From the NCBI GenBank assembly GCA_041665465.1, contig JBAYIU010000001.1:1406260-1470259 (forward strand): DNA of 64,000 bases, written 5' to 3'. The notes beneath the pieces are model-generated. The model was not told where the DNA came from. It was given only the letters and a program-made list of their open reading frames with translations, and made no database searches. The stretch is from Candidatus Woesearchaeota archaeon (GTDB taxonomy: Archaea > Nanobdellota > Nanobdellia > Woesearchaeales > GW2011-AR9). Of the stretch, positions 2,082 to 62,799 are shown one piece after another. How positions within the stretch are numbered: the first letter of the stretch is position 1; each line of letters opens with the position of its first letter. Position numbers and translations under genes: made by a program.

Positions 2082-5000
2082 ATGAAGAAAAAGAAGAAGG
2101 TGGTTCGTAAAGTTCATTCTAAGGTACGTTCTAAAGTTGGTACTCAACCCTCTTCTCCTTTCTTAAGTGTTGGTTTACGTGGACTTGCTACTTTATTGGT
2201 AATTTTTGGGATACTTTTTTCATTACAACTTTACTCTTCAGAATCTTCCCTCCTTAAAGAAGGATGGACCTCTTTAAGTCAAGGATTTAATGGTATGGGG
2301 AACCTTCTTACCGGAGCAGCAGTTGGGGTAGAAGAGATGCAAGTCCAAGCGGGAGATTGTGCTGGAGCTTACACTGGCGGAAATTGGACTATTAATTCTT
2401 CTGTTAGTTGTAGTAATGATGTGATTAGTGTAGATGGTTTTGTGATAATTAGAAATGATTCTATCTCTCCTGAATTAGTGGTAAATAATTTCTCTTTAAC
2501 CACTACTGGGGTTTATGACTTAAGAGGTAATTCTACAAATATTGTTCTAGCTGTTCCAGATTTAGATTCATCTACTCCTTCTGCTTATACTAACGATTGG
2601 GATGCTAATTCTGGAAGAGAATTCCGTATTGCTATGAATGAATCCCAGAATAGAATAATGGTTTATGTTAACAATACTGACAACAGTAGTTTCCTTTATG
2701 AATTTGACTTAGATGATAACCCTAGCACCGGCGGGATTGTGGGTGCGGGGGATGATTTTGGGATAGGATATATTGGCGATTTTGGTGGGCCATTAATTGG
2801 ATGTTATAACTCTTCAGATCCGCAAAATAACCTAATTCTCTTATCTTGTGATAATAGTCCTCTTACCTGTGGAAATGTTGATGGCTACGATGGTACTTTC
2901 ATGGGCAACTTTACTGTTTATTGTAACAATTCCGGAAATGCATATGAAGTTGTGATTGATCTGACTAATGCTAGTGATGGGATATGGGAGACTAAACCTG
3001 TTTATGCTTTAGATCCGACAGATCAATCTTCTCCTTTTTATTACACTACTTTCCGGAATAACTCGGTTCTTGATTCGGGGATAAATGCTAGTGGTAATCT
3101 TGTCTTAAATAACGTTACTTTGAATCTTGAAAATAACTTTACTATCTCTGGAGGTAATCTTGATATCCAAAAATCAAATCTTACCTTTAGGCTTACTTCT
3201 AACGGAAGTGCTAATTTTATGATTAGTTCTGGAACTGCTTTTGCTAATATTAATCACAGTGCTTTTACTTCAAATAATTCTATCCTGAGATGGAAAGCGA
3301 GGATCACTGATGGAGATTACAATCTTACCAATAATGTTTTCTCATATGTGGGTTATGATAATGGAGATGGTATTGGTTATAATTACGAAGTTGGTTTTTA
3401 TTTTGCTTCTCCCTTGGGCGGATTAGTCTATAATAATACTTTCTCTAATTGCGGAACCATCGCGGAAGCTAGTTGTGTTTCTTTAGTTGATGGCGACGGG
3501 AATAGTAGAAATACTGGACTAAATTTCAGTTCCAACACCATTTTTAGTGAATCTGCGGGTCTTGGAACCTTTTATCTGTCTGATTATAGTAATACTTCTT
3601 ATACTAGTGGAGTTTTCATAGGGAATAATACTTTTTATGGTAGATTCTCAGTAGGTGGAAGAAACCACATTATCTCTGGGAACTATATAAATAAATCTCT
3701 CTGGTTATCTTCTGTTGAATATAATAATACTTTCATTAATAACGAAGTTAGAACGGAATTGGGGTTTGCTTCAATTAATGAGCAGAATACCTCTTATGGA
3801 TCTAGTATCATAATCTATTCCAATGGATATGGTAAGATGACCTGGAGCGGTAAAGATAACATTCAGATGGGTTTAGTCAGTGTAGATGAAACCTTTGGAT
3901 TAGGAAATTATTTCTATGTAGGGAACAATCTATTGGGTTTAAATGTTGGGAACGGTGCGGGAATAGATTTCTCTGTACTTAACACCACTGCTTCCTTAGA
4001 ATTTTATAGTTTGCTCTGGAATAATAGTGTCCAGTTATGTGTTAATAATAGTGGAACTTTATCTGGGTGTGTAGATTGTAATTCCGGGAATAATTGTACT
4101 TATAGTAATATTACTGGGATTATGTTAGCTAATGTTACTCATTTCAGTAATTATAGTACTAACGGAAGTATTAGTGTAGCAGAATCTCCTGCAGTGACTT
4201 ATCTAACTAACTTCACAGATACCTTTACCGGAACTACAATAAATGCATCAAGATATACTATTACTCAAAGTGGATTAAACGTTTCTCAGAGTGATAAGAT
4301 TATATTTAATGGTTCATATGAGGGTGCAACCTTTTTCACAAATTCATTTGTTGATACAAATCAATCATTTGTTATATCCATTAATGTAGCTAAATTTGAT
4401 CAGACAGAATATGTTGGTATTTTGGAGGACATTGGGCCTTTGGGTGGTGCTCCGGATGACAATGAAGTTGGAATTAGTATTGAAAATGACACCACTCGAA
4501 TTTTAATGTGTAAATTATTAAAAAATGATACTGGATACTTCATAGAAGCTAACGGTTTTACTCATCCCGCAGAAACAATGCAGGTAAACTATACTGAAGG
4601 CCAACTATTTAGCTTGAACTATTCTAATATTGATGGAAGGTATAGTTGTAATTATGCTGGTGAGATGGTTAGCAACACTAATAGTTCTGCTGCAGGGGCA
4701 GATTTTATTACTTTCGATGCTGAAGCAATTTCTCAAATGAATTTACAATTAGATGATTTAAACTTTTATTATGGGACATTAGTGGAAGAAGCTCCTGGAT
4801 CTTCTTATTGTGGTGGTGCTTACACTGGCGGAAATTGGAATATTAACTCTTCCATCAGTTGCAGTAATGAAGCGATTACTGTTAATGGGACTTTGACTGT
4901 TGCTGACAATTCTGTCTCTGCAAATGATGTGACTAACAATTTCACTTCTAATTCTGCTGCTAATTATAACCTTAGGGATAATTCTACAAATATTGTTCTA

Positions 5001-8000
5001 GCTGTTCCAGATTTAGATTCATCTACTCCTTCTGCTTATACTAACGATTGGGACAGTAATTCTAGTCATGAGTTCCGTATTGCGATGAATGAAACTCAGA
5101 ACCGATTAATCATTTTTACTAATAACACTAACAATCTTGATTTTGCTTATTCCCTTAATTTAGATGAGGGTCTTAGTGGAGGAGTCTTTGGTCCTGAATA
5201 TGGAGATGATTTCTTGGTGGGATACTCTGGTGGGCCTGCGATTGGATGTTATAACTCTAGTCTTTTAGACCTCAATGTCTTACCTTGTGATAGTAGTCCA
5301 GTTACTTGTGGAAATGTTTCTGGGTATGATAGTAATTACGATGGTAACTTTACTGTTTATTGTAACAATTCTGGGAATGCTTACGAGATAGTAATCGATC
5401 TAGCCAATACCGGAAACGGATTGTGGAAGAATAAACCCGTTTATGCTCTTGACTTAAACACCAGTGCTTTTTATTATACCACTTTCAGGAACAGTTCCAT
5501 TCTCCCGGTGGTTGCAGTGGGTAATTTAACCTTAAACAATGTTACTCTCAATCTGCAGAATAATCTTACTCTAAGTGGTGGTTATCTTAACATCTATGAT
5601 TCTAATGTGACGATGATGTTGACTGCTAATAATAGTGCAAATATGGATATAAGATCTTCTAATGTGAACTTAAGTGGGACGACTTTCTCTGCTAACAATA
5701 CTAATTTTAAATATATAATAGCAATACAGAACGGAAGTTACGCCAATAATGATTTTTCAGATTTGGCATTGTGGGTTTATCCTGGAACCGGCGGGGTATT
5801 CTCAAATAATGTGGTTTCCAATTGTGGTGGGACTCCAGCGTGTATCATGGCAGCCATAGGTTATAGCAACGGATTTAATTTTACGGGAAATAACATTACT
5901 GCCACTAGTGGTACTGCTTGGGCCACTATGGTTGCGGGAAACAATTACACTTTCAGTAATAATAATATTTATGGTAGCGCTTCACTCTTTTATGGGAATG
6001 TTAGCGTAAGTAATAATTTATTTAATCGTAGTTTATCATCAACAAAGGAGTATGGAATTGATATGATTATCTTTACCAATAATATTATCTTCCCCGGTAT
6101 TAATAGCCAATTGATGGGAGATTGGAACGATACCCTTCCTGACACCTTTATCTATTCAAATAACTATGGCAAGATCACTTGGAACCTTTCTAATTATACT
6201 ACTCCTGAACCTAATCCCAGTTCTTTTGGTTTGGGATATAATTTATACTTAAATAATAACATCGTTGGGGTAAATGCACAATTATCGCTTATTAACTTTA
6301 ATACCACTGCTTCAATTGAGTTTTATGGATTGCCTTGGAATAACAGTGTACAATTATGTAACAACATTAGTGGAACTTTATCTGGGTGTGTAGATTGTAA
6401 TTCCGGGAATAATTGTACTTATAGTAATATTACTGGAATAATGCTAGCTAATGTCACTCATTTCAGCAATTATAGTACTAATGGAAGTACTGGTGTAGCA
6501 GAAGTCGGAGTTAGTTATTGTAGCGGTGCTTACACTGGTGGAAATTGGAATGTTAGTTCTTCTATCAATTGTAGTAATGAGGTTATTCCCGTGAACGGAA
6601 TTATTACTGTTCAAGATCTTTCTGAAACTGCTGTGACCCAATTTGGGGCTTCTACTGGTGGAATTTATGATTTAAGAAATAACTCTACTGGTGTTTTTGA
6701 TACGGATTTAAGTTCTTCTACTCCTTCAGCTTATACTACTGATTGGGATTCTGATTCTAATCGAGTATTTAAGATTGCTATGAATGAATCTTCAGACACG
6801 ATTCAGGTATATGGAAGTTTACCTAACGTTACTGCTTTGTATAGTTTTGATTTAGATAATAATGCTGCTACTGGTACTTCTGTCGGTGGTTCTGGATCAT
6901 CAGGGATGGATCTTACTTTTGGATATCATGCTGATGCTGGTGGAGTGTTGATGGCTTGTTACAACTCTTCTGTGCCTGGTATGTACTTAACTTGGTTTGC
7001 CGCTAGTGGAAGCATTGTTTGTGGTCAAACCATGGATGTCGGGTATGATCGTAATTATACTATCACTTTTAATTCAACTGCCTCTGGAGGAGGGAACACT
7101 TTTGAGTTTATCATTAATTCTACGGGAAGTTGGACCGATAAGAGAGTGGAATTGATGGATGGGGGTAACGCCTATTATTATTATACTAAATTCAAAACAT
7201 CTGGAGCAGTGGCCGGAGGAAGGGGGAATTTAACTCTTAACAATGTTACCTTAACCTTATCTGGAAATCTTACTATTAATGGTATATTAAACGTTAATCG
7301 TTCTTTCTTATACTTTGGAAGTAATAATACTCTTTTCACTTCAAATATCGGAGCTAGCATATTAATCAATAATTCTAATGTTACTTCTAATGGTTCTATC
7401 CGTTATGGAATACGTTCCTTAGGGTCCGACTTTACTTTAGAGAACAGCTACTTGAATGATTTGGGAGCAGTTGTTTCCTCGATGACTTATCCCTTAAAGA
7501 TGGAAGGAACAGGAGGTATGATCAAAAATCTTTCTCTTGGAGCTAACCAAAAGATGTACGGGGTTCAGATTGCTGGATCAGGAATATCTGTCCTTAATAG
7601 TACCTTTTCTGGATCTGCTAACACCATTAATTTATTAGCGGGTAGTTATAATAATATTATCCGGGGGAATAATCTTTCTACTGGGATCAGTTATCTGAAT
7701 GGTGGAAGTTCTTATAACAATCTTATCGCTGAGAATACTATTGCCGGAGTGGGGAATATCTTGATTGGTCAAACTTCTCCAGCTCATTTACCTTATAACA
7801 ACACCTATCTGAATAATAATATTCAGCAGGTTATCACTACTTATGTTGTGAACTATACCAACTATTTCATCTACAATAATTCTTATGGGCAAATAAAATG
7901 GACCAAGAATAATTTCAGTTCTTCTTTTGGAGGAAATGCAGTATTGGTGTTGGACCAGACTGTGTTTGTTAGGTCGAACTTGTTAGGAGTAACCCCCAAT

Positions 8001-11000
8001 ATGTATATGGGGAACTTCAACACTACGGCGGAATTGACTTTTAGAAATCTTCTTTGGAACAATAGTGTACAGTTATGTGAGAATGTTAGTGGAACTTTAT
8101 CTGGATGTGTGGATTGTAACTCTAGTAATAGTTGTACTTATAGTAATATTACTGGGATTATGCTAGCTAATGTTACTCACTTCAGCAATTATAGTACTAA
8201 TGGAAGTATCAGTGTGGCAGGGGGTTTGATTAATAATATCTCTGTAGTGAAATATGCGGTTAATAGTACGGTTAATTGCGATTCAAATGTAACCAGTTAT
8301 GCCCTCTTTATTATTAACGTAACCAATAACAACGCTTACAACCTTACCAACATTATTGTTAATGACACTCCCTTATGTACAAATGGGTTATCCCTTCAAC
8401 AGTCTTTGCCGATATATACTAATTTCTCCTCTTGCAATTATGCTTCTTGGACCATTGCTAATCTTGGACCGGGTGAAACTTATAATATCACTCTAAATTT
8501 TAGTGTCAGCAGTTCTGGCAATTTAACTAACACTGTGCAGGTATGGAATGCAACCAGTCAGTTAGTGAACACTACCGGTAATATCACTGTTACTGGTAGT
8601 TGTGGTGGAGAAAGTCCGGGGTCAAATTTCCTTTCCAACTTTGTAGATACTTTTGATGGAGCGACTATTAATACCAGCGTATATAATGTAACCACTGTTG
8701 GAAACATCAGTATTTCTCAGAATAATAAATTGGTGATTAACGGTTCTAGTGGATATTCATTCGCTGCAACAAATAGCTACGTGAATGTAAGTAATAACTT
8801 TAGTGTTTCAGTAAAAGTAAGTAAGTTTGATAACACTACTTATGGCATTCTAGCAGGAGATCCTTATTCTAACTTTGGTGTGTTTATCAGTAGCTTTTCT
8901 GGCTCGTCTATCTCCTCTAACTTTGTTAGATGTAACATTGCTATGAATTCAAGTGGTTATTTCTTGAATGTTCCTAACCCTGGAAATACTGTTCCTGTAT
9001 CTTATGTTGAAAATGCTACTTTAACTCTGAATTATCATGCCAACAATTATACTTGTGATTGTACTTATGGTGGACAAACTATTTCCTGTGGTAATGAGAG
9101 TCTTCCTTCTACCGACTATTCTATCCTATTGTTCGGTGGCCTCATCTCTGTATCAAATTTACAATTTGATGATCTTAATTTGACGTATAATCCCGTGGCA
9201 GCAGCAGAAACTCCTGCAGGTCCAGGATTAACCATTTATAATAATGGTTTCTTTGAGAACTTTACTTCTTTGAATTCCACATTTTATAACAACACTCTCA
9301 TGATCTTTAGTAATCCTTCTATCATTAATGGGCAGTTGATGATGAATAAAACCACTTTTGAGGGTACTGGTCAAGATTACTTCTACACTACTGTAGATAA
9401 TGTTTCAACCAATAGTTCTTGGAACATTTCTGTTTGGATAAATTTAACTAACACTACTACTAATGCACAAGGAAGTTATTTGATAGAGGCAGGAATCTTG
9501 ATTTATAATAGAACTACCTACAGTAGTTCTTTAGCCTGTGAAGTAGGATATGGTAATGGTATTGGTTTAATATTAGCAAATTATAACAATACTCACAGTT
9601 CAGCACCAACGTATACCTCGGTCTCAAGGAGTTATGGTAACTTAACTTACAGTTACAACAACGCTACTGGAATTTTTAATTGTTCTTTAGATGATGGCAC
9701 TTCTGTTGCTGGATCAACTGGTTCTTTCGGTCCGGGTATGGGTATGGGTGTTGTTTCTCAATTGTCACAAATCGGGGCAGTTGCGCCCAACGGTTCTGTA
9801 ACTGCTTACTTTGATAATTTTAATTATACTTATGCGGTAGCAGCAACTCCTGCTGTGACTTACCTATCCAACTTCACGGATGATTTTGCCGGGACTACTC
9901 TCAATACCTCGAGATACACTCTAGATGTAGGGGGAACTTTGGGAATTGCTCAAAATGAGACCGTGATTGTCAATGGAACCGACACCGGTGCAGACAGTTT
10001 TGCGGGGACTTATACTAATTTGGGGGTTAACACTTCACGTTCATTCTATGTTTCTGTAGGGGTCCTAAACCTTACTAACACCAGCGCTATTACCAGTCCG
10101 AATGGTTACGCAGACGTTAGTCTTTCCTTGACTGATGTTGGTCTTGATTTTCTGAATTTTGCTGTCTGTAAGGTTAGGGTTAAACCGACAGGAATCTATT
10201 TGGAAGATGATAATGTTCAAAGTGTGCCCATATCTGCTACCAACGGTACTTTAGTGCTTTCTTTCAACGCTTCCAACCTGAATTATACCTGTGCTTTTGC
10301 TGGAGATAGTTTAACTAGTGCCAATCTCTCTGGTTTAGGTGGAAATAATAGTTTGGATCTTGTTGCCGAAGCACTTAATACTTCTGTCTGGGCAGAGATA
10401 GATAATCTAGAATTTGCTTATGGGGTTTATTCTGCTCCCGTAGAAACTCCTGCTGTGACTTACCTTTCTAACTTCACTGATAGTTTTACTGGAGTTACTA
10501 TCAACACTAGCAGATATATCTTAGATGAAGGCGGAAACTTATCTATGGCTCAGAATGGTACTTTGGTGGTCAATGGTACTGATAGTGGTTTTGATAGTTG
10601 GGAAGGAGTGTATACTAATTTAGGAGTTAACACTTCAGATTCTTTTTACATTTCAGTTGATGTTAATCTTACTAATACTAGTGCGATTACCAATGCGAGT
10701 GGTGCCACTCGTGCTTATATCTCACTCGCTGATGTGGCAACTGAACTGGATTTTGCGATGTGTGTAATTTACATAAGTCCAGCGGAGGTTGCTTTACAGG
10801 ATGGTGAGGGCGGTGGTCATGCTATGCCTCTATCTATAACCAATGGTACGCTGGTTATGGCTTTCAACGTTTCAAGTATGAATTATAGCTGTCAGTTTGC
10901 TGGACAAAATCTAACTCATGCTAATCTCTCTAGTCCAAGTGGTAATTATAGTTTGTTCTTAGAGTCTGATGCTTTGTATACCTCGACGTGGGCAGAGATG

Positions 11001-14000
11001 GATAACTTAGAGTTTGCCTATGGAGTTTATTCTGCTCCCGTAGCAGAAACTCCTGCTGTGACTTACCTATCCAACTTCAACGATACTTTTGATGGAGCGA
11101 CTATTAATACCAGTAGGTATACTGTTATTTCTGATGGGAATACTACCCTGTCTCAGAATAATAAAGTTATCATTAATGGTACTTCCGGTAGACCCATGAT
11201 GGGGATGAATAGCGCGGTAAACATCAGTAATAATTTCAGTGTTTCAGTCAAAGTAAGTAAATTTGACAATACCACTTATAGTATTATGGGAGCAGATCCT
11301 TATTCTTCTTTTGGGTTGTATATCGGTAACTTTTCTAATTCCAGTTATGATAAAGGCTTTGTTCGATGTAAACTTGCCATGAATTCTAGTGGTTATTTCT
11401 TGAATCATCCTAATTCCGGAAACACTGTTCCTGTCTCTTATGTAGAGAATGGAACTCTTACCTTGACATATTATGCTAATAATTATTCCAATAGTTGTAA
11501 TTATGATGGGAAAAATGTTTCTGGCATTAATGAGAGTTCTTCTTCTGGAGTATATTCTATCATTATGAATGCACAACCCCTTTCTTTAATCAACTTACAA
11601 TTTGATGACCTTAATTTGACGTATAATCCTGTAGCAGCAACTCCTGCTTCTGATAACTCTCCTAATGTTACTCTAGCCAATCCTGAAAATAATTATGTCA
11701 ACGATTCTGCGTCGAGAATTAATATCACTTTTGAATGTGATGCTACTGATGATTATCAACTAGTTAATGTCTCTTTATATTTAACTAATCCTGCTAATGC
11801 TTCTTTTGCTCTGAATCAAACCACCAATGTTGGTGGCACATCTAATTCAACTAGTTGGTTAGTAGAATTAGGTAATGGAAATTATACTTGGGGTTGTCTA
11901 GCATTCGATAATGCTTCTCAGTCCAGTTTCTCTACCCTCAATCACAGTATTCTAATAAACCATACTGTCTCGATATCTGATACCACTTATCCTACTGTAA
12001 CCCTAATCTCTCCTGCAAGCAGTTCTTACACAAACGCTAACAATAGTACCTTACCTTTTGTGTTCGGATACCAAGACAGTAATGATGCTACTGCTAACTG
12101 TACCTTATACCTGAACGGAGTAGCTAGAGGGAATAACGCTAGCACTAGAAACAACACTAACACTAATCTGTATTCTAGTACTACCTTCTCTGAAGGAAGT
12201 AATTCTTGGTACGTTAACTGTACTGATGCCGCTGGAAATACTAACGGAACTTCTACTTGGACTTTCATTGCTGATACTATTAATCCAACTGCTTCAATTA
12301 ATTCCATTAATACTCAGTATAGTGGTCAATGGACCAATACTCAAACTTTAAGTATTAATGCTACTGCTAGCGATGTTAACATTAATTATTGGAACCTTTC
12401 TGTATACAACAGTAATAGTTTAATTACTTCCAATCAGACTTCTGGAAGCAACCTTAATAATCTCGTTACTCTAAGTGTTTCTGCTGATGGAAATTATACT
12501 GTGAATTTAACCGTAACGGATCAAGTTAATAATTCCAACACTTCCACTTTCAATCTTCTAGTTGATACCTTTGCTCCTACTGTTAATTTGACTACTCCTC
12601 CTACAAATGTCTTAGTGTCCTTGGCATCAATAACTTCCACTTTCAATTTCACTGATGCTAGTTCTTCTAGCGCTAATTGCACTTTGTATGTGGGGGGGAT
12701 AGTTAAAGCAACTAACTCCTCTGTACTTAATTACACTAATACTGTGCTTACTGGTAGTTCTCTCTCTGAAGGGAACAATTCTTGGTATGTTAATTGTACT
12801 GATTTAGCAAGCAATACTGGAATCTCTGAAGTAAGAGTTATTCGAGTAGACACTACCACTCCCAGTGTCAGTGGTGCTAGTGTAAACGTAAGTCGAGCTA
12901 AATCTTCTACTTTGGTTGGAATCAATGTTACTGTAACCGATACCAATTTAGCCTGGGTTAAGGCTAATGGGATAAACATGAGTGCCAGTGGAAGCGACAT
13001 GTACAATCTTAGTGCAACTGCCTCTACTTTAGGATGTAGCGAAGGTACTTGTACTATTACTATAATTGCCAATGATTCTGCTAGAAATGCTAATAGTAGC
13101 GTTACTACCAGTTATGTGGTAGATGATACTGCTCCTGCACTGTTCTCTAACTCCACTTCTATCGCTACTGGATCAGTATACAATGCTTCATCTACTTATT
13201 ACTTCAATGTTACTTGGAATGAAACCGGAACCATTTCTAGTCCCTTATTAGAATTTAACAGTGCAAATTATACTATGACTACGGTTGGAAGCGGTGTTTA
13301 TTATTATACTTTTACCGATTTAGCAACTAGTACTTATTCTTACAAATTCATTGCTATAGATGATTCTGGGAATAGTAATGAGACTGCTAGTTATACTTAC
13401 GTTGTAGCTCAGGCAACTCCCTCTATCACCGCTTTACTTAATGGTACAGCTGCTAACCTAAGTGTCGCTTATCCCAATACCGTTAATGCTTCGGGAAGTA
13501 CCGACGCTGGAACCTTAGCTATTTATCGTAACGGGACATCTGTAACTAATGGGGCTGCATCTCTTTTAACTGTTGGATCTTATAGATATGATTTTAACGT
13601 TACTGGAAATCAGAATTATACTAACGCTTCTGCTACCTTGTATGCTACTGTGACTAAAGGTACTCCTGTCCTAACTTATTACTTAAATGGAAATACCACA
13701 AACTTAAGTGTTGTTTATCCTAATACCGTTAATGCTACTGCATCAACTACTGCAGGAACCTTAACCATTTACAGAAATGAAACTAATGTTACTAGTGAGA
13801 ATGGTGCAGCAACTTCTTTAGCTGTTGGATATTATCAATATGATTTCAATATAAGTGGTGGAGAGAATTATACTGATACTTCTACTACTTTGTATGCTAA
13901 TGTAACAATTGGAACTCCAACCTTGTCCCTGTACTTAAACGGAGCAGAAAACAATATGTCTGTAAACTACGGAACTAAAGTAAATGTTACTGGAACAGGT

Positions 14001-15179
14001 TCTGCATCTCAATTAAGTTATACCCTCTATCGTAACAATGTATCTACCCCTAACCCTGAAATTCTTTCCAATCTGTCTTACGGGACCAATTACACTTACC
14101 TCTTTAACACCAGCGGAAATGCCAATTACAGTGCTTCCTCGGTGTCTTACCAATTAGAAGTATTGTTGGGAGCGACTCAAGAATTAACCAATTCAACTGA
14201 TATTACTGTTACTAATACTACTACCGAAATTGTAATTCAGAATTCTAGTTTATCTCAAGTACGACTAAATTCTAGTATCGCTAGTACTACTCAAGTAAAT
14301 CTTTCTTTAGGTTTACTGATGGATCAGTCTACTGGAACTTTCAGTCTAGGAGAAAATAACTTCACCATGACTAGGGAAGTCTCTGGAGTGAACTATACTG
14401 TAGATATCCCGGCTAATACTAACTTGACTGGTGGAAGTGCTTGGGATGGTAAGTTTACTTTGCCCACTTTACCTGCTACTAGCGGATTTACTGCACCTTC
14501 TGGCAGTGTTAATTTAGTGATTGAAGTTGGTTCTACGGTGGAGATTAATCTCTCCGCTCCGGCAAAAATCGTTTTAAATGGAATGTCTGGAAAATCTGCA
14601 GGATGGTCCAGAAGTGGTACTATCACTGAGATAACCACTGTTTGTGATAATGCTACCTTGCCTACCAACATTAATACTACTAGTCCTAGAATCTGTTCTG
14701 TTGATAGTGGTAGTGATCTAATCGTTTGGACTTATCATTTCACTAACTTTGCTGCTTACACTCCCAGCGACGGATCTTCTAGTAGTTCTAGTAGCGGTGG
14801 AGGAAGTAGTAGTAGCAGCAGCACTCCCTCTTCTGCCCCAACAGAATACGCTACCGAGAACCCTGCTCCTAAATTGCCTTCAGTAACTAAAGCACCAACA
14901 GTGACTGCTCCGGTTGAAGTGCCAGTGGAAAATCCCGTTACGACTGTTCCTGAGACTGTTCCGGTTGAAGAGAATAAAGCTTTAGCGGGAATGGCTATCT
15001 CTGATCAACTTCGTTCAATCTTAACCGATTGGAGTAATTTATGGATTGGGTTAGTGGTGGTGGCTTTAATCGTTCTATCTCTATATCCTGTATTTAAGAG
15101 AGTTAAAAATAATCGTAACCGGGAAGAGATGCGAGAAGAATTAAGACAACAAGCGGCTAAGAAAATCAAACAGAAATAA
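2082..15179 (+). CDS. Giant (4365 aa) modular cell-surface protein: N-terminal signal/anchor helix, beta-helix-like Asn-rich repeats, lectin/LamG-like and Ig-like repeat modules, Ser/Thr/Pro-rich stalk, C-terminal TM helix with a basic cytoplasmic tail; saturated with N-x-S/T sequons (putative heavily N-glycosylated S-layer/adhesin-like protein)
   Basis: Single 13,098-nt ORF in AT-rich DNA (stop codons would be frequent by chance). AGGTG RBS 4 nt upstream. N-terminal 'LATLLVIFGILFSLQLY' helix. C-terminal 'SSSSSSSGGGSSSSSS...PTVTAPVEVPVENPVTTVPETVPV' stalk, then 'LWIGLVVVALIVLSLYPVF' and 'KRVKNNRNREEMREELRQQAAKKIKQK'. Modules recur 3-6 times. Confidence 0.88.
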   Translation: MKKKKKVVRKVHSKVRSKVGTQPSSPFLSVGLRGLATLLVIFGILFSLQLYSSESSLLKEGWTSLSQGFNGMGNLLTGAAVGVEEMQVQAGDCAGAYTGGNWTINSSVSCSNDVISVDGFVIIRNDSISPELVVNNFSLTTTGVYDLRGNSTNIVLAVPDLDSSTPSAYTNDWDANSGREFRIAMNESQNRIMVYVNNTDNSSFLYEFDLDDNPSTGGIVGAGDDFGIGYIGDFGGPLIGCYNSSDPQNNLILLSCDNSPLTCGNVDGYDGTFMGNFTVYCNNSGNAYEVVIDLTNASDGIWETKPVYALDPTDQSSPFYYTTFRNNSVLDSGINASGNLVLNNVTLNLENNFTISGGNLDIQKSNLTFRLTSNGSANFMISSGTAFANINHSAFTSNNSILRWKARITDGDYNLTNNVFSYVGYDNGDGIGYNYEVGFYFASPLGGLVYNNTFSNCGTIAEASCVSLVDGDGNSRNTGLNFSSNTIFSESAGLGTFYLSDYSNTSYTSGVFIGNNTFYGRFSVGGRNHIISGNYINKSLWLSSVEYNNTFINNEVRTELGFASINEQNTSYGSSIIIYSNGYGKMTWSGKDNIQMGLVSVDETFGLGNYFYVGNNLLGLNVGNGAGIDFSVLNTTASLEFYSLLWNNSVQLCVNNSGTLSGCVDCNSGNNCTYSNITGIMLANVTHFSNYSTNGSISVAESPAVTYLTNFTDTFTGTTINASRYTITQSGLNVSQSDKIIFNGSYEGATFFTNSFVDTNQSFVISINVAKFDQTEYVGILEDIGPLGGAPDDNEVGISIENDTTRILMCKLLKNDTGYFIEANGFTHPAETMQVNYTEGQLFSLNYSNIDGRYSCNYAGEMVSNTNSSAAGADFITFDAEAISQMNLQLDDLNFYYGTLVEEAPGSSYCGGAYTGGNWNINSSISCSNEAITVNGTLTVADNSVSANDVTNNFTSNSAANYNLRDNSTNIVLAVPDLDSSTPSAYTNDWDSNSSHEFRIAMNETQNRLIIFTNNTNNLDFAYSLNLDEGLSGGVFGPEYGDDFLVGYSGGPAIGCYNSSLLDLNVLPCDSSPVTCGNVSGYDSNYDGNFTVYCNNSGNAYEIVIDLANTGNGLWKNKPVYALDLNTSAFYYTTFRNSSILPVVAVGNLTLNNVTLNLQNNLTLSGGYLNIYDSNVTMMLTANNSANMDIRSSNVNLSGTTFSANNTNFKYIIAIQNGSYANNDFSDLALWVYPGTGGVFSNNVVSNCGGTPACIMAAIGYSNGFNFTGNNITATSGTAWATMVAGNNYTFSNNNIYGSASLFYGNVSVSNNLFNRSLSSTKEYGIDMIIFTNNIIFPGINSQLMGDWNDTLPDTFIYSNNYGKITWNLSNYTTPEPNPSSFGLGYNLYLNNNIVGVNAQLSLINFNTTASIEFYGLPWNNSVQLCNNISGTLSGCVDCNSGNNCTYSNITGIMLANVTHFSNYSTNGSTGVAEVGVSYCSGAYTGGNWNVSSSINCSNEVIPVNGIITVQDLSETAVTQFGASTGGIYDLRNNSTGVFDTDLSSSTPSAYTTDWDSDSNRVFKIAMNESSDTIQVYGSLPNVTALYSFDLDNNAATGTSVGGSGSSGMDLTFGYHADAGGVLMACYNSSVPGMYLTWFAASGSIVCGQTMDVGYDRNYTITFNSTASGGGNTFEFIINSTGSWTDKRVELMDGGNAYYYYTKFKTSGAVAGGRGNLTLNNVTLTLSGNLTINGILNVNRSFLYFGSNNTLFTSNIGASILINNSNVTSNGSIRYGIRSLGSDFTLENSYLNDLGAVVSSMTYPLKMEGTGGMIKNLSLGANQKMYGVQIAGSGISVLNSTFSGSANTINLLAGSYNNIIRGNNLSTGISYLNGGSSYNNLIAENTIAGVGNILIGQTSPAHLPYNNTYLNNNIQQVITTYVVNYTNYFIYNNSYGQIKWTKNNFSSSFGGNAVLVLDQTVFVRSNLLGVTPNMYMGNFNTTAELTFRNLLWNNSVQLCENVSGTLSGCVDCNSSNSCTYSNITGIMLANVTHFSNYSTNGSISVAGGLINNISVVKYAVNSTVNCDSNVTSYALFIINVTNNNAYNLTNIIVNDTPLCTNGLSLQQSLPIYTNFSSCNYASWTIANLGPGETYNITLNFSVSSSGNLTNTVQVWNATSQLVNTTGNITVTGSCGGESPGSNFLSNFVDTFDGATINTSVYNVTTVGNISISQNNKLVINGSSGYSFAATNSYVNVSNNFSVSVKVSKFDNTTYGILAGDPYSNFGVFISSFSGSSISSNFVRCNIAMNSSGYFLNVPNPGNTVPVSYVENATLTLNYHANNYTCDCTYGGQTISCGNESLPSTDYSILLFGGLISVSNLQFDDLNLTYNPVAAAETPAGPGLTIYNNGFFENFTSLNSTFYNNTLMIFSNPSIINGQLMMNKTTFEGTGQDYFYTTVDNVSTNSSWNISVWINLTNTTTNAQGSYLIEAGILIYNRTTYSSSLACEVGYGNGIGLILANYNNTHSSAPTYTSVSRSYGNLTYSYNNATGIFNCSLDDGTSVAGSTGSFGPGMGMGVVSQLSQIGAVAPNGSVTAYFDNFNYTYAVAATPAVTYLSNFTDDFAGTTLNTSRYTLDVGGTLGIAQNETVIVNGTDTGADSFAGTYTNLGVNTSRSFYVSVGVLNLTNTSAITSPNGYADVSLSLTDVGLDFLNFAVCKVRVKPTGIYLEDDNVQSVPISATNGTLVLSFNASNLNYTCAFAGDSLTSANLSGLGGNNSLDLVAEALNTSVWAEIDNLEFAYGVYSAPVETPAVTYLSNFTDSFTGVTINTSRYILDEGGNLSMAQNGTLVVNGTDSGFDSWEGVYTNLGVNTSDSFYISVDVNLTNTSAITNASGATRAYISLADVATELDFAMCVIYISPAEVALQDGEGGGHAMPLSITNGTLVMAFNVSSMNYSCQFAGQNLTHANLSSPSGNYSLFLESDALYTSTWAEMDNLEFAYGVYSAPVAETPAVTYLSNFNDTFDGATINTSRYTVISDGNTTLSQNNKVIINGTSGRPMMGMNSAVNISNNFSVSVKVSKFDNTTYSIMGADPYSSFGLYIGNFSNSSYDKGFVRCKLAMNSSGYFLNHPNSGNTVPVSYVENGTLTLTYYANNYSNSCNYDGKNVSGINESSSSGVYSIIMNAQPLSLINLQFDDLNLTYNPVAATPASDNSPNVTLANPENNYVNDSASRINITFECDATDDYQLVNVSLYLTNPANASFALNQTTNVGGTSNSTSWLVELGNGNYTWGCLAFDNASQSSFSTLNHSILINHTVSISDTTYPTVTLISPASSSYTNANNSTLPFVFGYQDSNDATANCTLYLNGVARGNNASTRNNTNTNLYSSTTFSEGSNSWYVNCTDAAGNTNGTSTWTFIADTINPTASINSINTQYSGQWTNTQTLSINATASDVNINYWNLSVYNSNSLITSNQTSGSNLNNLVTLSVSADGNYTVNLTVTDQVNNSNTSTFNLLVDTFAPTVNLTTPPTNVLVSLASITSTFNFTDASSSSANCTLYVGGIVKATNSSVLNYTNTVLTGSSLSEGNNSWYVNCTDLASNTGISEVRVIRVDTTTPSVSGASVNVSRAKSSTLVGINVTVTDTNLAWVKANGINMSASGSDMYNLSATASTLGCSEGTCTITIIANDSARNANSSVTTSYVVDDTAPALFSNSTSIATGSVYNASSTYYFNVTWNETGTISSPLLEFNSANYTMTTVGSGVYYYTFTDLATSTYSYKFIAIDDSGNSNETASYTYVVAQATPSITALLNGTAANLSVAYPNTVNASGSTDAGTLAIYRNGTSVTNGAASLLTVGSYRYDFNVTGNQNYTNASATLYATVTKGTPVLTYYLNGNTTNLSVVYPNTVNATASTTAGTLTIYRNETNVTSENGAATSLAVGYYQYDFNISGGENYTDTSTTLYANVTIGTPTLSLYLNGAENNMSVNYGTKVNVTGTGSASQLSYTLYRNNVSTPNPEILSNLSYGTNYTYLFNTSGNANYSASSVSYQLEVLLGATQELTNSTDITVTNTTTEIVIQNSSLSQVRLNSSIASTTQVNLSLGLLMDQSTGTFSLGENNFTMTREVSGVNYTVDIPANTNLTGGSAWDGKFTLPTLPATSGFTAPSGSVNLVIEVGSTVEINLSAPAKIVLNGMSGKSAGWSRSGTITEITTVCDNATLPTNINTTSPRICSVDSGSDLIVWTYHFTNFAAYTPSDGSSSSSSSGGGSSSSSSTPSSAPTEYATENPAPKLPSVTKAPTVTAPVEVPVENPVTTVPETVPVEENKALAGMAISDQLRSILTDWSNLWIGLVVVALIVLSLYPVFKRVKNNRNREEMREELRQQAAKKIKQK
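2529..2602 (+). repeat. 74-nt segment of the giant gene identical to 4980..5053 (codes LAVPDLDSSTPSAYTNDWD)
   Basis: Both copies read directly; perfect nucleotide identity. Confidence 0.85.
4015..4169 (+). repeat. About 155-nt near-identical intragenic module (WNNSVQLC..SGTLSGCVDCNSGNNCTYSNITGIMLANVTHFSNYSTNGS), copy 1 of 3; other copies about 6335..6489 and 8055..8216
   Basis: Near-identical nucleotide strings at three positions in the giant ORF. Confidence 0.8.
4980..5053 (+). repeat. Second copy of the 74-nt identical intragenic repeat (see 2529..2602)
   Basis: Direct comparison of the two segments. Confidence 0.85.
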
Positions 15180-33107: not shown

Positions 33108-34583
33108 TTAACTCTTCACTTCAGGCGTAACTTCCTTCTCAGCATTTTTCTTCGCTCTTTCTGCTCTTCGTAGATCTCTTTCTTGCTTCTTTATCTCGTT
33201 AGCTTGTTTCTTAGCTTCTTTAGCTGCTTCTTTTTCTTCTTCTTCTTTATTATGAAGATGGTCTTTCCATCGAAGTAAGGTGTAATTAACCGGGTTTTTG
33301 ATATGGGCACATAAGCTGTCTGGCTTACACACTCCAAACGATTTATAGTAACCTTCATTGTTACAGTTAGGTGGAAGTTTCTCTCCCGGTTTGAAATAAC
33401 GTAACTGTGATTCGATATAATTGTCCCTAAGAGGATTAGCTTTATTTTTGTCATGGTTCCATTCTAACAAAAATCCTTCTAATTCTTTTTTGCTCCATCC
33501 AATCTTGCCTAAGAAATTACTCCAACAGAATACTGCCCGTTTCTTTCCATCTTCCATTCCGTTCAATAACCCTTTCATACAGGGAGGAAAGAAATCCTCT
33601 CTAATCGGAGAAGTAACCATCGTTTCTTCGTTCTTATTTTGGTTCTCAATCTTGATTCTATCTCGAACTTCTTTTTCTACTACTGTTTTAGTTTGGAAGT
33701 CTAATGCTGAGGTAAGCAAGTTTCTGGCACTTGGTCCAGAAACGTTTCGGTCCATAAACTTAAACATAGGGGTAAGAATCTTGTCCGGATCAGCCATAGA
33801 TCGCTCAAATTCCATCACTCGTTCTGGATCGATGGGCAAACTAACTAATCCCGATTTCTCATGCAAAGAATAAGGCATACGATACAAATGACGTGGGGCG
33901 ATCAGGATAGTATCAATCTCTAAGAACTTATCCACGTTTAGTTTAGCAACCTTATCACCATACTGGTTCTTTTCATAACCCGTTATATCTTCCGGTGGCA
34001 GTTCTACTTTATCTTTGATCTTACTGAAATCGTTGTTTTCAAAAGCAAGAATTCTTTTTCCTAACTCTTCTTTGATGTTCTCTTTGATATAAGCAGCAAT
34101 CTTTCTGGCTGCTTCCGGAAAGAGAGTTTTAATCTGGATAGATCCTACTTGGCTGGGAAATGCTTCAAAAGGTACTCCAATATGAAAACCTTTATTGCCC
34201 GAAAATTTTATGGAATAATCTTTTACTTCACATCTCTTAAGAAATTTGATAATCAAATCCGCACTAATCTTGCTGTAATCGATAAATTTACAATCTATAT
34301 CTAGTACTAAGTCCCATCCTCGGCGAAGTTCTTCCATCTCTTTCTTATTTGAAGTGCTGCTTAAACTTAAGGGATTATCCCATATTTCTTCGCTACAGTG
34401 AAACGAAGTTACTCCTTTAAGAGCTAATTCTAAAATCTCTTTAGGATATGTCAAGATATCTGGGCGTTTACCAAAGCTTTCTCCATATCTGACACTGAAT
34501 TCTTTATTCTGAGCATGTTCTACTATCTCTTGCTGAATGTCCTTTCTTTTGTAGAAGCGTAGGCATGTGCCTTTGTCTATCAT
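33108..34583 (-). CDS. priS: Single-chain DNA primase: PriS catalytic domain fused to a PriL C-terminal Fe-S-type domain
   Basis: PriS motifs 'WDLVLDIDCK' (DxD) and 'FSGNKGFHIGV' (SGxRGxH). C-terminal region 'FFPPCMKGLL...FLGKIGWSKKELEGFLLEW...PNCNNEGYYKSFGVCKPDSLC' parallels p58C/PriL-CTD (FPPCM...FLKGIGL..FW...C...C). Lys/Glu-rich tail. Confidence 0.75.
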   Translation of the reverse strand: MIDKGTCLRFYKRKDIQQEIVEHAQNKEFSVRYGESFGKRPDILTYPKEILELALKGVTSFHCSEEIWDNPLSLSSTSNKKEMEELRRGWDLVLDIDCKFIDYSKISADLIIKFLKRCEVKDYSIKFSGNKGFHIGVPFEAFPSQVGSIQIKTLFPEAARKIAAYIKENIKEELGKRILAFENNDFSKIKDKVELPPEDITGYEKNQYGDKVAKLNVDKFLEIDTILIAPRHLYRMPYSLHEKSGLVSLPIDPERVMEFERSMADPDKILTPMFKFMDRNVSGPSARNLLTSALDFQTKTVVEKEVRDRIKIENQNKNEETMVTSPIREDFFPPCMKGLLNGMEDGKKRAVFCWSNFLGKIGWSKKELEGFLLEWNHDKNKANPLRDNYIESQLRYFKPGEKLPPNCNNEGYYKSFGVCKPDSLCAHIKNPVNYTLLRWKDHLHNKEEEEKEAAKEAKKQANEIKKQERDLRRAERAKKNAEKEVTPEVKS

Positions 34584-34640
34584 TAAAATTCAATTTAAAT
34601 TAGAAGTATAAAATACTTTCTTTAGTAGAATAGATAATAC

Positions 34641-34910
34641 TTACAATCCACTTGCTTCTTTCTGGAACTCTTTAGCTTTCTTCTTCAGATTAGTTAAAGC
34701 TTCCTTTAAGGATTTTCTGGGCTCAATTCCTTTAGTTTCTAACAGGAAATGAGGTACTCCCGTTAAAGGATGGTCAATCTTATAAGTGGCAGTGTCTACA
34801 CCTTTAACTTGCTGTAATTCATGCTTTAGAGCGTTACAGAAGGTGTGCGTTTCTCCTTTCAGCTCAAAAATGAGCTTAGTCTTAGATTCTTCAATGACTT
34901 TGAATTCCAT
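34641..34910 (-). CDS. rpoL: RNA polymerase subunit Rpo11/RpoL (Rpb11 homolog)
   Basis: 'GETHTFCNALKHELQQVKGVDTATYKIDHPLTGVPHFLLETKG' matches the RpoL pattern (DHTLGNLL...HPL). Start set at MEFKV. Confidence 0.7.
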   Translation of the reverse strand: MEFKVIEESKTKLIFELKGETHTFCNALKHELQQVKGVDTATYKIDHPLTGVPHFLLETKGIEPRKSLKEALTNLKKKAKEFQKEASGL

Positions 34911-35009
34911 AGTGGAGAAAATTAAGGACTTCATTTATAAACGTTTCGATGGTATTTTTACTACAGCACAGAGAAAGTATTTAAATCTCGGGGTATTCCT
35001 TAATAACTA

Positions 35010-36203
35010 ATGCCCATTCTTAGGAAAGATACTCCCGAACATCAGATTTACAAAGTCTTAGAACATTGGCAGCCAACTGATGAAATTATGATGGTTAAAG
35101 AGCTAACTAACCCTAAGAAAAAATTATCTATCCTCTTTGCTTATCTCTATGATCTGGTTAAGAAAGAGTATAAATCCTTTCCCACTCGTAAAAATGGAAA
35201 AAATCCTTTTGTTCATCCTCTTAACATAGTATGGGATCTAAGGAAAGCCAAAGTTAAAAATGAAGTAACGATTTGTGCAGCGTTAATCCATGACTTAATT
35301 GAGGAGAAGGTAGATCTTTATAAAAGACTGAAACATCTTTCTGAAACACCGGATGGAGTAAAAAAGTTAGATAAGTATGAGGATAAGTTGTGGGTAAAAT
35401 TTGAGAAAGATCTTAAAGAATTCAGTGAAGATGCTCAGTATCATTCTTCTGTTAAACAGATTTTAGAGGTAGTTTTTCTTTTAACTCGACACAAAAGACA
35501 TTTCTATTATCGTTCCATTTCTTCTCTTTTTAATCGAGAGGATGACGATACCAAAGAAATGGCCATCCAAGTTAAACTAGCGGACAGGATTCATAATCTT
35601 CAATCTTTAGACTGCTTTACTGAAGAGGATAGGATGTACCAATGTTTCAAAACTTTATTTATTCTTAATAACACTAAAGCTTATCTTAAGAAAAAATACG
35701 GGCAAAATAGTAATCCAGATAAAGCAGTCCATCCTACTGAAAAATTGTTTAAAAAATGTTGTAAGGCAACGTATGATGCTTTTCTGATGATTGAGAGAAT
35801 GTCTCTGGCTAAAGGGATTACTCCCATCGAATCGATGCTACAATTGGCGTTTATGAAGTATGCTTGGGAAAGATCTGGGCTGGACCAAGTTACTTCTACT
35901 AATCTTAAAGAAACTCATCCTATGCGTTTGTATCAGGGAATCATTAGGAAATATGATTCTCGATTACACCAAGAATGGAGCCAATTTAAACAGATGAAAC
36001 GGTTAGAATCAGAATATTGTCAAAAGTTCTTTGCTGATTACAATTTTACTTCTGAACAAATAGAGGCTTTGATTAATTATAAAGATGCTTATGCTCTTAA
36101 AGAAGTGGTCGCTTTATTGTTGTATGATCCGGATTATGTCGTGAAAGGATTTGGGTGTGCGGGATTGTGTCGTAGAGGATTTGTGTGTATGAAGAAAAAG
36201 TAA
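35010..36203 (+). CDS. RelA/SpoT-family HD-domain protein ((p)ppGpp hydrolase-like) with an uncharacterised C-terminal extension
   Basis: 'RKNGKNPFVHPLNIVWDL...ICAALIHDLIEE' and 'KLADRIHNLQSL' mirror SpoT 'RKSGEPYI.HP...AALLHDVIEDT' and 'KLADRTHNMRTL'. No synthetase domain seen. Confidence 0.65.
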   Translation: MPILRKDTPEHQIYKVLEHWQPTDEIMMVKELTNPKKKLSILFAYLYDLVKKEYKSFPTRKNGKNPFVHPLNIVWDLRKAKVKNEVTICAALIHDLIEEKVDLYKRLKHLSETPDGVKKLDKYEDKLWVKFEKDLKEFSEDAQYHSSVKQILEVVFLLTRHKRHFYYRSISSLFNREDDDTKEMAIQVKLADRIHNLQSLDCFTEEDRMYQCFKTLFILNNTKAYLKKKYGQNSNPDKAVHPTEKLFKKCCKATYDAFLMIERMSLAKGITPIESMLQLAFMKYAWERSGLDQVTSTNLKETHPMRLYQGIIRKYDSRLHQEWSQFKQMKRLESEYCQKFFADYNFTSEQIEALINYKDAYALKEVVALLLYDPDYVVKGFGCAGLCRRGFVCMKKK

Positions 36204-60892: not shown

Positions 60893-62602
60893 TTATTTTT
60901 CTAAACTCTTCTCGATCTTTTTAAGGTCCCAACAGTTTAACACATCCTTTTTCTCTGTCCAGCCACGTCGAGCAGATAGTAGTCCTAAAGGATAGTATCC
61001 TAACTGGCTTTTCTGGTGAGCATCGGTGCTGATAACAACCCTACATCCAGCTTGTATGGCTGATTTAACTTGCAGCCCATTTAAGTCCATTCTTTCGGGA
61101 GAAGAGTTGATTTCTAAAAAGACGTTCTTTTGTTTAGCTGCTTCAAATACTCTCTCTAGGTTTATATTTATCTCTGGACGATGTCCATGCTCAATCCCAG
61201 TAGGATGACCCAAAATATTTATTGGGTAATTATTTAAACATTTTATTATTCGAGCAGTCATCTCTTTCTCTGGCATTTGTAATGAAGTATGCACTGCTGC
61301 TATCACCACATCTAACTCTTTAAGTTTAGATTTGGGCAGAGTTAGAGTGCCGTCTTTCTGAATGTCAATCTCTATTCCCGAAAAGACTCTGATTCCTACT
61401 TTCTTTCTAACCTTCTCGATTTCTTTTAAGTATTGAATTAAGCGTTTTTCAGTTAGGGGATTAACTATCCCTAATCTGCTGTAATGGTCATTGAAAGAAA
61501 TGAATTTCATCCCTATTCTTTCTGCTTGCTGAGCCATTTTTAATATTGAGTTTTCTCCATCGGACCAGGTAGAATGGTTGTGAAACAATCCTTTAATGTC
61601 CTTCAAAGTGATTAGTTTAGGAAGTTTATGTTGTAAAGCTGCTTCTATTTCTCCAGTATTCTCTCTCAATTCTGGTTCGATAAAGTTCATCCCTAATTTA
61701 TCATAAATCTCTTTCTCTGTGGTTCCAGCCACCCATACTTTATCTTTTAATCTGAACAATCCATATTCGCTGAGAGTATATCCTTTGGAGAGAGCTAGTT
61801 TTCTTAGCTGAATGTTGTGTTCCTTACTCCCGATGAAATAATTCATGGCTGAACCGAATTCTTTTTCTTTGACTACTCGTAAATCTACTTGCAATCCGTT
61901 GCTTAGACGAATGGAACTCTTAGTAGTTCCTTTATTGAGAATCTCTTTTACTTCCGGAAGTTTAGTAAATAAGTCAATTACTTTTTCTGGCTGAGTGGAA
62001 GTGGCTAAGAAATCTAAATCTCCAACTGTTTCTTTACCTCGGCGGAAAGATCCGGCAACTTCTATCTTTTTGGCAAAAGGTTGAGCTTTGAAATAAGCTA
62101 GAATCTCATTCACGATCGGAAGAGCCTGAGCATACAAGAAACGTTGAGGATTAGTCTTCAAGTAGTTGATTCCTTGCAAGAAATGTTTCTCTGTTTCTGC
62201 TCCAAACCCTGGAACGGTTCTTAACTTTCCAGTTTTGATCGCTTTCTCTAAGTCATCGACATTACTGATCTTCAATTTCTGATGAAGGATCTTAACTCTC
62301 TTTGGCCCCAATCCGGGGATTTGTAATAATTGTTCTAAATCAAACCCTACTTCTTTCTTCAGTTTGGTGTAATAATCTAATTTTCCGGTTTCTAGATATT
62401 GCTCTATTTTTAGAGCGATATGTTCTCCTATTCCGGGAATCTTCTGTAATTCTCCTCTTTGATGGATGGCTTCGATGTCTTCAGAAAGTGATTCGATAGA
62501 GCGAGCGGCATTTCGGTATGCCTGTGGTTTGAATTTAATTTCTTGCAGTTCTAGCAAGTCAGCGATTTCGTACAAGATTTTAGCTATTTCTAAGTTTTTC
62601 AT
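60893..62602 (-). CDS. Family X DNA polymerase with C-terminal PHP domain
   Basis: HhH motifs; 'GSFRRGKETVGDLDFL'; PHP 'HNHSTWSDG'. Start taken at MKNLEIAKIL (track extension to 62689 covers a GC-rich palindromic element). Confidence 0.88.
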   Translation of the reverse strand: MKNLEIAKILYEIADLLELQEIKFKPQAYRNAARSIESLSEDIEAIHQRGELQKIPGIGEHIALKIEQYLETGKLDYYTKLKKEVGFDLEQLLQIPGLGPKRVKILHQKLKISNVDDLEKAIKTGKLRTVPGFGAETEKHFLQGINYLKTNPQRFLYAQALPIVNEILAYFKAQPFAKKIEVAGSFRRGKETVGDLDFLATSTQPEKVIDLFTKLPEVKEILNKGTTKSSIRLSNGLQVDLRVVKEKEFGSAMNYFIGSKEHNIQLRKLALSKGYTLSEYGLFRLKDKVWVAGTTEKEIYDKLGMNFIEPELRENTGEIEAALQHKLPKLITLKDIKGLFHNHSTWSDGENSILKMAQQAERIGMKFISFNDHYSRLGIVNPLTEKRLIQYLKEIEKVRKKVGIRVFSGIEIDIQKDGTLTLPKSKLKELDVVIAAVHTSLQMPEKEMTARIIKCLNNYPINILGHPTGIEHGHRPEININLERVFEAAKQKNVFLEINSSPERMDLNGLQVKSAIQAGCRVVISTDAHQKSQLGYYPLGLLSARRGWTEKKDVLNCWDLKKIEKSLEK

Positions 62603-62799
62603 GTATTCCTCTTTTTGGGGAGAAGTAGTTGTTTTAAGTTTATAAAAATTTGGAAAAGCCACTGAACAGAGTGGTTTGTCCAGTGGCACTAACCTTCCAA
62701 ACCCTAAATCTTTTGGGAATCAGCCGTTCTAGAGAAGCCACTCCCGCACTGGACAACCTCAGCTAGAATATATAAAGGGGTTCTGCTCTTAGGTTTATT

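Follow-up and report, generated by a model that had tools for sequence, protein, structure and literature searches.

At positions 33108-34583 of the window that we analysed (a 64-kb stretch of 64,000 nucleotides from a Candidatus Woesearchaeota contig) lies the gene of a one-piece DNA primase, in which a catalytic PriS domain is joined to the iron-sulfur domain of PriL. We consider it very probable that this gene encodes the single-chain replicative primase of a Woesearchaeota (DPANN Cluster 2) archaeon, i.e., an orthologue of the NEQ395 type. Domain homology, residue conservation, the single-ORF architecture and a clade-wide distribution were all observed directly, and they are laid out below together with the alternative readings of the gene, a proposed mechanism and a comparison with characterised primases.

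The gene and its domain layout

The fused primase gene consists of one uninterrupted ORF on the minus strand, encoding 491 aa, which begins with an ATG and is preceded by an in-frame stop with only 2 sense codons between the two. An NCBI entry from a Candidatus Woesearchaeota MAG (1.56 Mb contig) matches the encoded protein at 100% identity, and identical copies flanked by the same neighbours are found in independent ENA and JGI assemblies. The public record carries the name 'DNA primase small subunit domain-containing protein'; that public annotation names the small-subunit domain only is a consequence of the PriL Pfam score, which falls 1 bit under its cutoff (see below). The sequence motifs on which the original prediction had based its two-domain reading are all in place, namely the PriS motifs VLDIDC (aa 93-98) and FSGNKGFHI (aa 127-135) and the PriL-CTD strings FFPPCM (aa 331-336), FLGKIGW (aa 357-363) and ELEGFLLEW (aa 367-375), followed by C407, C419 and C425.

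The CHARACTERISED enzyme for comparison is N. equitans NEQ395 (AAR39242.1), a primase that Schneider, Bergsch & Lipps (2023, PMC10250227) showed to be active as a monomer and to bind a [4Fe-4S] cluster. The features of the woesearchaeal gene, with window coordinates and with the evidence for each in brackets, are as follows:

33108..34583, minus strand: complete ORF of the fused PriS-PriL(CTD) primase, 491 aa plus stop (ORF calling)
33789..34583, minus strand: PriS (AEP) catalytic domain, aa 1-265 (PF01896, AF2, Foldseek)
34290..34307, minus strand: motif I, VLDIDC, aa 93-98, with the predicted metal-binding residues D95 and D97 (conserved; corresponding to NEQ395 D87/D89)
34179..34205, minus strand: motif II, FSGNKGFHI, aa 127-135, with S128/K131/H134 (invariant; S-x2-K-x2-H spacing as in NEQ395 S119/K122/H125)
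33855..33920, minus strand: motif III region, EIDT...RHLYRMPYSLHEK, aa 222-243, with D224/H232/R235/H241 (conservation)
33594..33788, minus strand: interdomain linker, aa 266-330, partly helical, in place of the PriL N-terminal domain (pLDDT, alignment)
33255..33593, minus strand: PriL C-terminal (Fe-S) domain, aa 331-443 (NCBIfam PriL models, 9f26_B, AF2)
33579..33581, minus strand: Cys335 (FFPPC), predicted first [4Fe-4S] ligand (invariant; corresponding to NEQ395 C289)
33528..33545, minus strand: K347-K348-R349-A-V-F352, predicted site for the initiating NTP and the primer 5' end (offsets from the first Cys; conservation)
33309..33365, minus strand: Cys407/Cys419/Cys425 (PPNC...GVCKPDSLC), predicted remaining [4Fe-4S] ligands (conservation, spacing)
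33108..33254, minus strand: Lys/Glu-rich C-terminal extension, aa 444-491, plus the stop codon (AF2, composition)

The full-length AF2 model, for which an alignment of 34 sequences served as input, had a mean pLDDT of 83.9. It comprises a confident N-terminal alpha/beta domain, a low-confidence stretch at aa 298-325 and a confident helical domain at aa ~331-443; two confident domains separated by a low-confidence linker have likewise been described for NEQ395.

Evidence for the two domains, the linker and the tail

The assignment of the N-terminal half to PriS was borne out by sequence and structure searches alike. Specifically, PF01896 (DNA_primase_S) matched aa 100-252 with an E-value of 2.8e-8 and 34.7 bits, above its Pfam gathering cutoff of 26.8, and a PriS model was matched by 33 of the 34 aligned homologs (NCBIfam/profile search). 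When the modelled structure was compared with known primases, Foldseek searches of the PDB returned eukaryotic and archaeal primase small subunits together with Prim-Pols (E 2e-8 to 1e-5); pLDDT in this domain was mostly about 77-97, with a drop to 59 around aa 221-230. Residues H62, D95, D97, S128, K131, H134, D224, H232 and R235 are invariant in the 34 homologs. Motif I is invariant in 34/34 and takes the form [LIVM]D[LIVM]D in 120/120 close homologs, and in motif III D224, H232, R235, S239 and H241 are invariant in the 34-homolog alignment, with a D-x7-H-x2-R spacing identical to that of NEQ395 D194/H202/R205; the same region aligns with 'PFSVHPKTG' of human PriS. Inspection of this alignment revealed no apparent Zn-knuckle (i.e., a four-ligand Cys/His arrangement) in the PriS domain; apart from the invariant C98 and from C118, which is kept in most but not all homologs, the domain showed no conserved ligands.

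The C-terminal part had been likened to the C-terminal domain of PriL, and profile searches indeed placed a PriL-CTD match at aa ~320-440. Five NCBIfam PriL models matched aa ~290-467 with E-values of 1.4e-9 to 6.4e-7; their alignments start at model positions 179-223 of ~350-400 and cover only the C-terminal ~40% (positions ~180-358 of ~350-360). Since the models are aligned in their C-terminal part only, we conclude that the PriL-CTD is present and the PriL N-terminal domain absent. The scores against these equivalog models (30-38 bits) lie far under the cutoffs of 326-479; together with the single ORF and the missing PriL-NTD, this ruled out a canonical heterodimeric PriS/PriL assignment.

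Pfam model PF04104 (DNA_primase_lrg) matched aa 301-367 with an E-value of 1.7e-4 and 21.4 bits, 1 bit below its gathering cutoff of 22.4. As this match is under the cutoff for the protein itself, we base PriL homology on the NCBIfam E-values. In relatives PF04104 reaches 25-31 bits, which is over the cutoff, and some homologs carry a precomputed PF04104 hit; a PriL model was matched by all of the aligned homologs (34/34, best E 3e-13). Compared with PDB sequences, the single protein matched P. abyssi PriL (9f26_B) through the blocks 'FPPC' and 'PPNC...C...C...NP', and the family profile matched the same chain with an E-value of 9.8e-6.

The predicted four-cysteine Fe-S signature was upheld by conservation and by spacing. 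In the 34-homolog alignment C407 and C425 are invariant, like C335, and C419 is at least 90% conserved, the exceptions having a Cys shifted by 1-2 positions; by inspection, all four cysteines are kept in 120/120 close homologs. The segment containing C407, C419 and C425 aligns with the C-x-C-x-C region of P. abyssi PriL. Within the predicted nucleotide site, K348, R349 and F352 are invariant in the 34-homolog alignment. A model of the isolated domain (aa 322-445; AF2) had a pLDDT of 84.6 and a pTM of 0.79, and in Foldseek searches with it 11 of the 12 best matches were either S. solfataricus PriX or the Fe-S domain (p58C) of the primase large subunit from human or yeast. These matches have a TM of about 0.5 and E-values of 0.23-1.5, and are singly non-significant; the modelled fold thus agrees with the sequence evidence and cannot stand alone.

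The suggested link to Nanoarchaeum-type fused primases was corroborated by residue-level agreement with NEQ395 and by the literature on the fusion (PMC3914693, PMC7414124). The residues mutated in NEQ395 comprise H58, D87, D89, S119, K122, H125, D194, H202 and R205 in the PriS domain, and R301, R303 and F306 along with the cluster ligands C289, C364, C376 and C384 in the PriL domain (PMC10250227). Mapped through published positions and spacing rather than by direct alignment, 16/16 of these (PMC10250227 Table 2) have equally spaced counterparts in the woesearchaeal protein, whose conservation across the 34 homologs is either complete or no lower than 90%.

The two domains are separated by a linker of only about 65 residues, in the place where a PriL N-terminal domain would be expected from heterodimeric enzymes. 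This linker has pLDDT values under 50 at aa 298-307 and aa 309-325 (AF2) and is the most variable and gapped stretch of the 34-homolog alignment, the C-terminal tail excepted. The tail itself forms a long C-terminal helix in the AF2 model (aa 431-484, pLDDT about 80-89), and the last 51 residues (aa 441-491) include 12 Glu and 11 Lys. In homologs it measures 11-79 aa (median 33) and consists of 23% K and 21% E. For this Lys/Glu-rich helix, alone among the parts of the protein, published work offers no explanation.

Genomic context, distribution and alternative readings

The primase gene sits in a context of chromosomal housekeeping. Upstream, 57 bp away and in the same orientation, is the gene for RNA polymerase subunit L/Rpo11 (rpoL), and downstream is a gene for an MgtC/DUF4010 membrane protein; elsewhere the window encodes Orc1/Cdc6, an archaeal-type ThrRS, SerRS, Elp3, a PolX-PHP protein and two DEAD-box helicases. 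GC content is even along the window (0.34-0.39), and neither tRNA genes nor Rfam matches were found in its 64 kb. We also noted an ORF with a Bro-N domain about 28 kb from the primase.

That no separate priL is present in the window, as originally stated, was confirmed by two kinds of search. Pfam was run on 38 of the 54 ORFs with 100 aa or more, every ORF of at least 200 aa among them, and detected no second PriS or PriL in the window, and HMMs built from each half of the family, run against its 432 stop-to-stop segments, found nothing else (next best E 0.28). The window amounts to about 4% of the ~1.56 Mb contig.

Relatives of the primase were found in at least 568 GTDB species-representative genomes. 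Among the 80 loci listed, the match almost always spans both domains and nearly all labels are Woesearchaeota or Nanoarchaeota; synteny with rpoL is partly conserved among orthologues. Some of the GTDB relatives bear the label 'uncultured Methanosarcinales', apparently a default on the submitter's part. Among 1.84 billion cluster representatives, relatives occur in 719 clusters (50% identity), most of them 400-550 aa long with both domains covered.

The fusion itself has a published history. According to Raymann et al. 2014 (PMC3914693), Iyer et al. 2005 were the first to note it, in N. equitans; Raymann et al. themselves extended it to Nanohaloarchaea and Parvarchaeota and proposed it as a shared derived character. 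It has since been described as a synapomorphy of DPANN Cluster 2 and Undinarchaeota, where separate priS and priL genes are absent (Dombrowski 2020, PMC7414124), and a 2026 preprint explicitly places Woesearchaea in the primase tree of the fused-primase clade, named Nanostetteria (bioRxiv 10.64898/2026.06.17.729505). The lineage-diagnostic value attributed to the fusion in the original prediction is thus already on record, Woesearchaea included. It makes the gene a useful phylogenetic marker, one that puts the organism of the window in DPANN Cluster 2 ('Nanostetteria'). The woesearchaeal fused primase is accordingly a known protein, ordinary for its lineage and one more instance of a published trait. 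This instance holds nothing conceptually new and its practical value lies in annotation, where a dedicated profile of the fused family would mend names such as the one in the public record across thousands of MAG proteins.

Three other explanations of the gene were weighed, and even jointly they are improbable. One is that the protein is a mobile-element primase-polymerase (like PolpTN2 of pTN2 or ORF904 of pRN1), which would replicate an element rather than the chromosome. Archaeal plasmids do carry fused PriS-PriL primases (PMC3973330), the preprint mentioned above argues for an ancient mobile-element origin of the DPANN fused primase (bioRxiv 10.64898/2026.06.17.729505), and the Bro-N domain ORF is located on the same stretch of DNA. 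However, the protein had no match in 72,556 plasmids and none in IMG/VR, and phage matches were confined to the AEP core, 16% of the query. The gene has housekeeping neighbours and adjoins neither an integrase nor any other element gene, GC is uniform, and orthologues occur in hundreds of species genomes with rpoL synteny partly conserved; Raymann et al., moreover, report that PolpTN2 and the primases of nanosized archaea are not similar in sequence (PMC3914693). We therefore regard a mobile-element enzyme as very unlikely.

A repair PrimPol or NHEJ-type polymerase (i.e., a LigD-like AEP) in place of a replicative primase appears a little less likely again. It could be invoked from weak matches to PF21686 (LigD_Prim-Pol; E 1.3e-3, 18.8 bits against a cutoff of 27.4) and TIGR02778 (E 8.6e-3, 15.8 bits against a cutoff of 214.7), and from the Prim-PolC and LigD structures among the Foldseek matches. 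Yet these sub-threshold matches reflect the AEP core that is common to the superfamily, and PriS models score better; the protein also contains a PriL Fe-S domain, which LigD-type enzymes lack, and neither a Ku nor a ligase gene is adjacent or was seen among the window ORFs scanned with Pfam. The explanation to which we give the least weight concerns only the C-terminal Cys region, which would be an unrelated Zn-binding module with a chance resemblance to the PriL-CTD. Although the PriL Pfam score just under threshold and the weak fold-search E-values of the isolated domain would suit such a module, five independent PriL profiles (E<1e-6) have alignments that extend as far as the C-terminus of PriL, every one of the 34 homologs matches PriL with E-values down to 3e-13, and relatives score above the Pfam cutoff (25-31 bits). 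PriX or primase Fe-S domains also make up all but one of the 12 top fold matches, and the homologous domain of NEQ395 has been shown experimentally to bind a [4Fe-4S] cluster (PMC10250227).

Proposed mechanism and comparison with known primases

For the gene read as a single-chain replicative primase, we propose that nucleotidyl transfer would be carried out by the N-terminal AEP/PriS domain, in which D95, D97 and D224 are predicted to hold two catalytic metals, and H62, S128, K131, H134, H232 and R235 to bind the elongating NTP. The helical PriL-CTD would carry a [4Fe-4S] cluster on C335, C407, C419 and C425. It would also use K347, R349 and F352 to hold first the initiating NTP and then the primer's 5'-triphosphate end, and such holding may be what makes de novo formation of a dinucleotide possible. 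The flexible linker of ~65 residues would tether the two domains covalently, and in this way would replace the PriL-NTD that bridges the subunits of heterodimeric primases; primer length is probably set in part by the length of this linker, in the manner of a ruler. The cluster may be structural or regulatory and is expected to be dispensable for catalysis in vitro. By analogy with the biochemistry of NEQ395, the protein would be active as a monomer, would make short RNA primers, would need its CTD for initiation and not for elongation, and would bind the cluster. An enzyme of this kind offers a minimal model of initiation by eukaryote-type primases.

Compared with the heterodimeric PriS-PriL primases (P. 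abyssi 9f26, S. solfataricus 1zt2/5of3, human 4rr2), the woesearchaeal primase has a homologous catalytic domain and a homologous Fe-S CTD, and presumably the same division of labour, with catalysis in PriS and binding of the initiation site and 5' end in the PriL-CTD. It differs from them in being one polypeptide and in lacking the PriS-binding N-terminal domain of PriL. The fusion of a PriS-like N-terminus to a PriL-like C-terminus is shared with PolpTN2 of Thermococcus nautilus pTN2 (PMC3973330), which, unlike the woesearchaeal primase, is a plasmid-borne DNA primase/polymerase (PMC3973330); Raymann et al., who detected no similarity between its sequence and those of nanosized-archaea primases, assign it an independent origin (PMC3914693).

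The closest likeness is to NEQ395. Both proteins are single chains with an N-terminal AEP domain that has equivalent catalytic and NTP-binding residues, a flexible and partly helical linker and a C-terminal PriL-CTD, and both lack the PriL-NTD. The spacing of the four cysteines is near-identical (72/12/6 in the woesearchaeal primase vs 75/12/8 in NEQ395), and K347, R349 and F352 stand at +12/+14/+17 from the first Cys, exactly as do R301, R303 and F306 of NEQ395, with a Lys (K347) where NEQ395 has an Arg (R301). The differences lie mainly in length. The woesearchaeal primase has 491 aa and NEQ395 393 aa; the distance from R235 to C335 is 100 residues, whereas the corresponding distance in NEQ395 (R205 to C289) is 84, i.e., about 16 residues less. 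This longer linker matters because changes in linker length altered the primer-length distribution in NEQ395 (PMC10250227). The primers of NEQ395 are about 9 nt long, and among template triplets it prefers those with a central T, ATA in particular. The woesearchaeal protein has in addition a Lys/Glu-rich C-terminal helix of ~48 aa, for which NEQ395, at its length, is too short. The hosts differ as well, being a mesophilic, low-GC Woesearchaeote in one case and a hyperthermophile in the other. It is conceivable, if rather doubtful, that the charged tail and the longer linker are functional adaptations, the tail acting as an arm that tethers the enzyme to DNA or to the replisome and the linker shifting primer length relative to NEQ395. 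Set beside the fused primases of DPANN Cluster 2 and Undinarchaeota as a whole, the woesearchaeal primase is a typical member, with no substantive difference from them.

Primase upstream region and neighbouring genes

We examined the sequence upstream of the fused primase gene together with the genes on that side, which are arranged as follows:

Spacer and genes upstream of the primase
34584-34640: spacer of 57 bp between rpoL and the primase gene
34641-34934 (-): RNA polymerase subunit L/Rpo11 (rpoL), 5' of the primase gene and co-directional with it
35010-36203 (+): 397-aa protein with only marginal HD-domain matches

Among the related loci, 73 have upstream sequence; rpoL directly adjoins the primase in 21 of these, and it lies at most 3 kb away in 51 of 82 loci. 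The gene for the 397-aa protein, which is divergent from the rpoL-primase pair and whose product ends in a Cys-rich tail (GCAGLCRRGFVCMKKK), is also conserved as a neighbour, adjoining the primase in 18 of the 82 related loci. Within the spacer, a TTTTATA sequence is located about 25 nt 5' of the primase ATG (plus-strand 34608-34614). This would fit a candidate archaeal TATA box and a near-leaderless primase mRNA, but the surrounding spacer is rich in AT.

Other genes in the window

Four further genes were noted:

Other genes of the window
2082-15179 (+): single giant ORF of 4365 aa
47993-49060 (+): Orc1/Cdc6-type AAA+ protein (AAA_22 and Cdc6 lid domain)
60893-62689 (-): PolX-family polymerase with a PHP domain
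62800-63642 (+): Bro-N domain protein, adjoining the PolX-PHP gene

The giant ORF had no Pfam match at E<=1e-3 and could belong to the very large proteins that typify DPANN genomes. A replication origin might lie near the Orc1/Cdc6-type gene, which is about 13 kb away from the primase; the cumulative GC skew of the window showed no clear turning point. The Bro-N domain is one that usually points to a virus or mobile element.

Variation among relatives of the fused primase

Many of the listed GTDB genomes with a Woesearchaeota-type primase (loci L009-L014 and others) have third-party annotation (TPA) records titled 'uncultured Methanosarcinales archaeon', which seems to be a wrong or default taxon given at submission rather than real Methanosarcinales.

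Some database homologues of the primase, 883-1019 aa in length, carry inteins with LAGLIDADG, and the insertion points fall precisely within catalytic motifs:

Intein sites in primase relatives
P0121, P0143, P0266: KF|S...HN|SGNKGFH
P0187: DxD motif
P0235: PYS|...HN|SLHEK

Four of these proteins (P0121, P0187, P0235 and P0266) match Pfam Intein_splicing (E-values from 6e-11 to 2e-28), while the call for P0143 comes from reading its sequence only. The window primase has no intein. No description of an intein in a DPANN primase came up in a brief search of the literature.

In several relatives (P0241, P0235 and P0266), the variable loop that separates PriS motifs II and III also holds an insertion that is rich in CxxC and resembles a Zn ribbon. 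The equivalent region of the window primase is:

33939-34031, approximately (-): aa ~185-215

The window primase has no CxxC-rich insert in this loop, and no four-ligand Zn-knuckle motif was apparent in its PriS domain upon inspection of the alignment.

Finally, in P0266, a distant family member, all four Fe-S cysteines are missing (FPPV..., PPNY..., GVASETDG), and a Pfam scan gave no PF04104 match. Its sequence suggests that the cluster may occasionally be lost in the fused-primase family, as in PriX. Such a loss is consistent with the behaviour of NEQ395, the characterised monomeric PriS-PriL(CTD) primase of Nanoarchaeum equitans, whose activity in vitro does not need the [4Fe-4S] cluster (PMC10250227).
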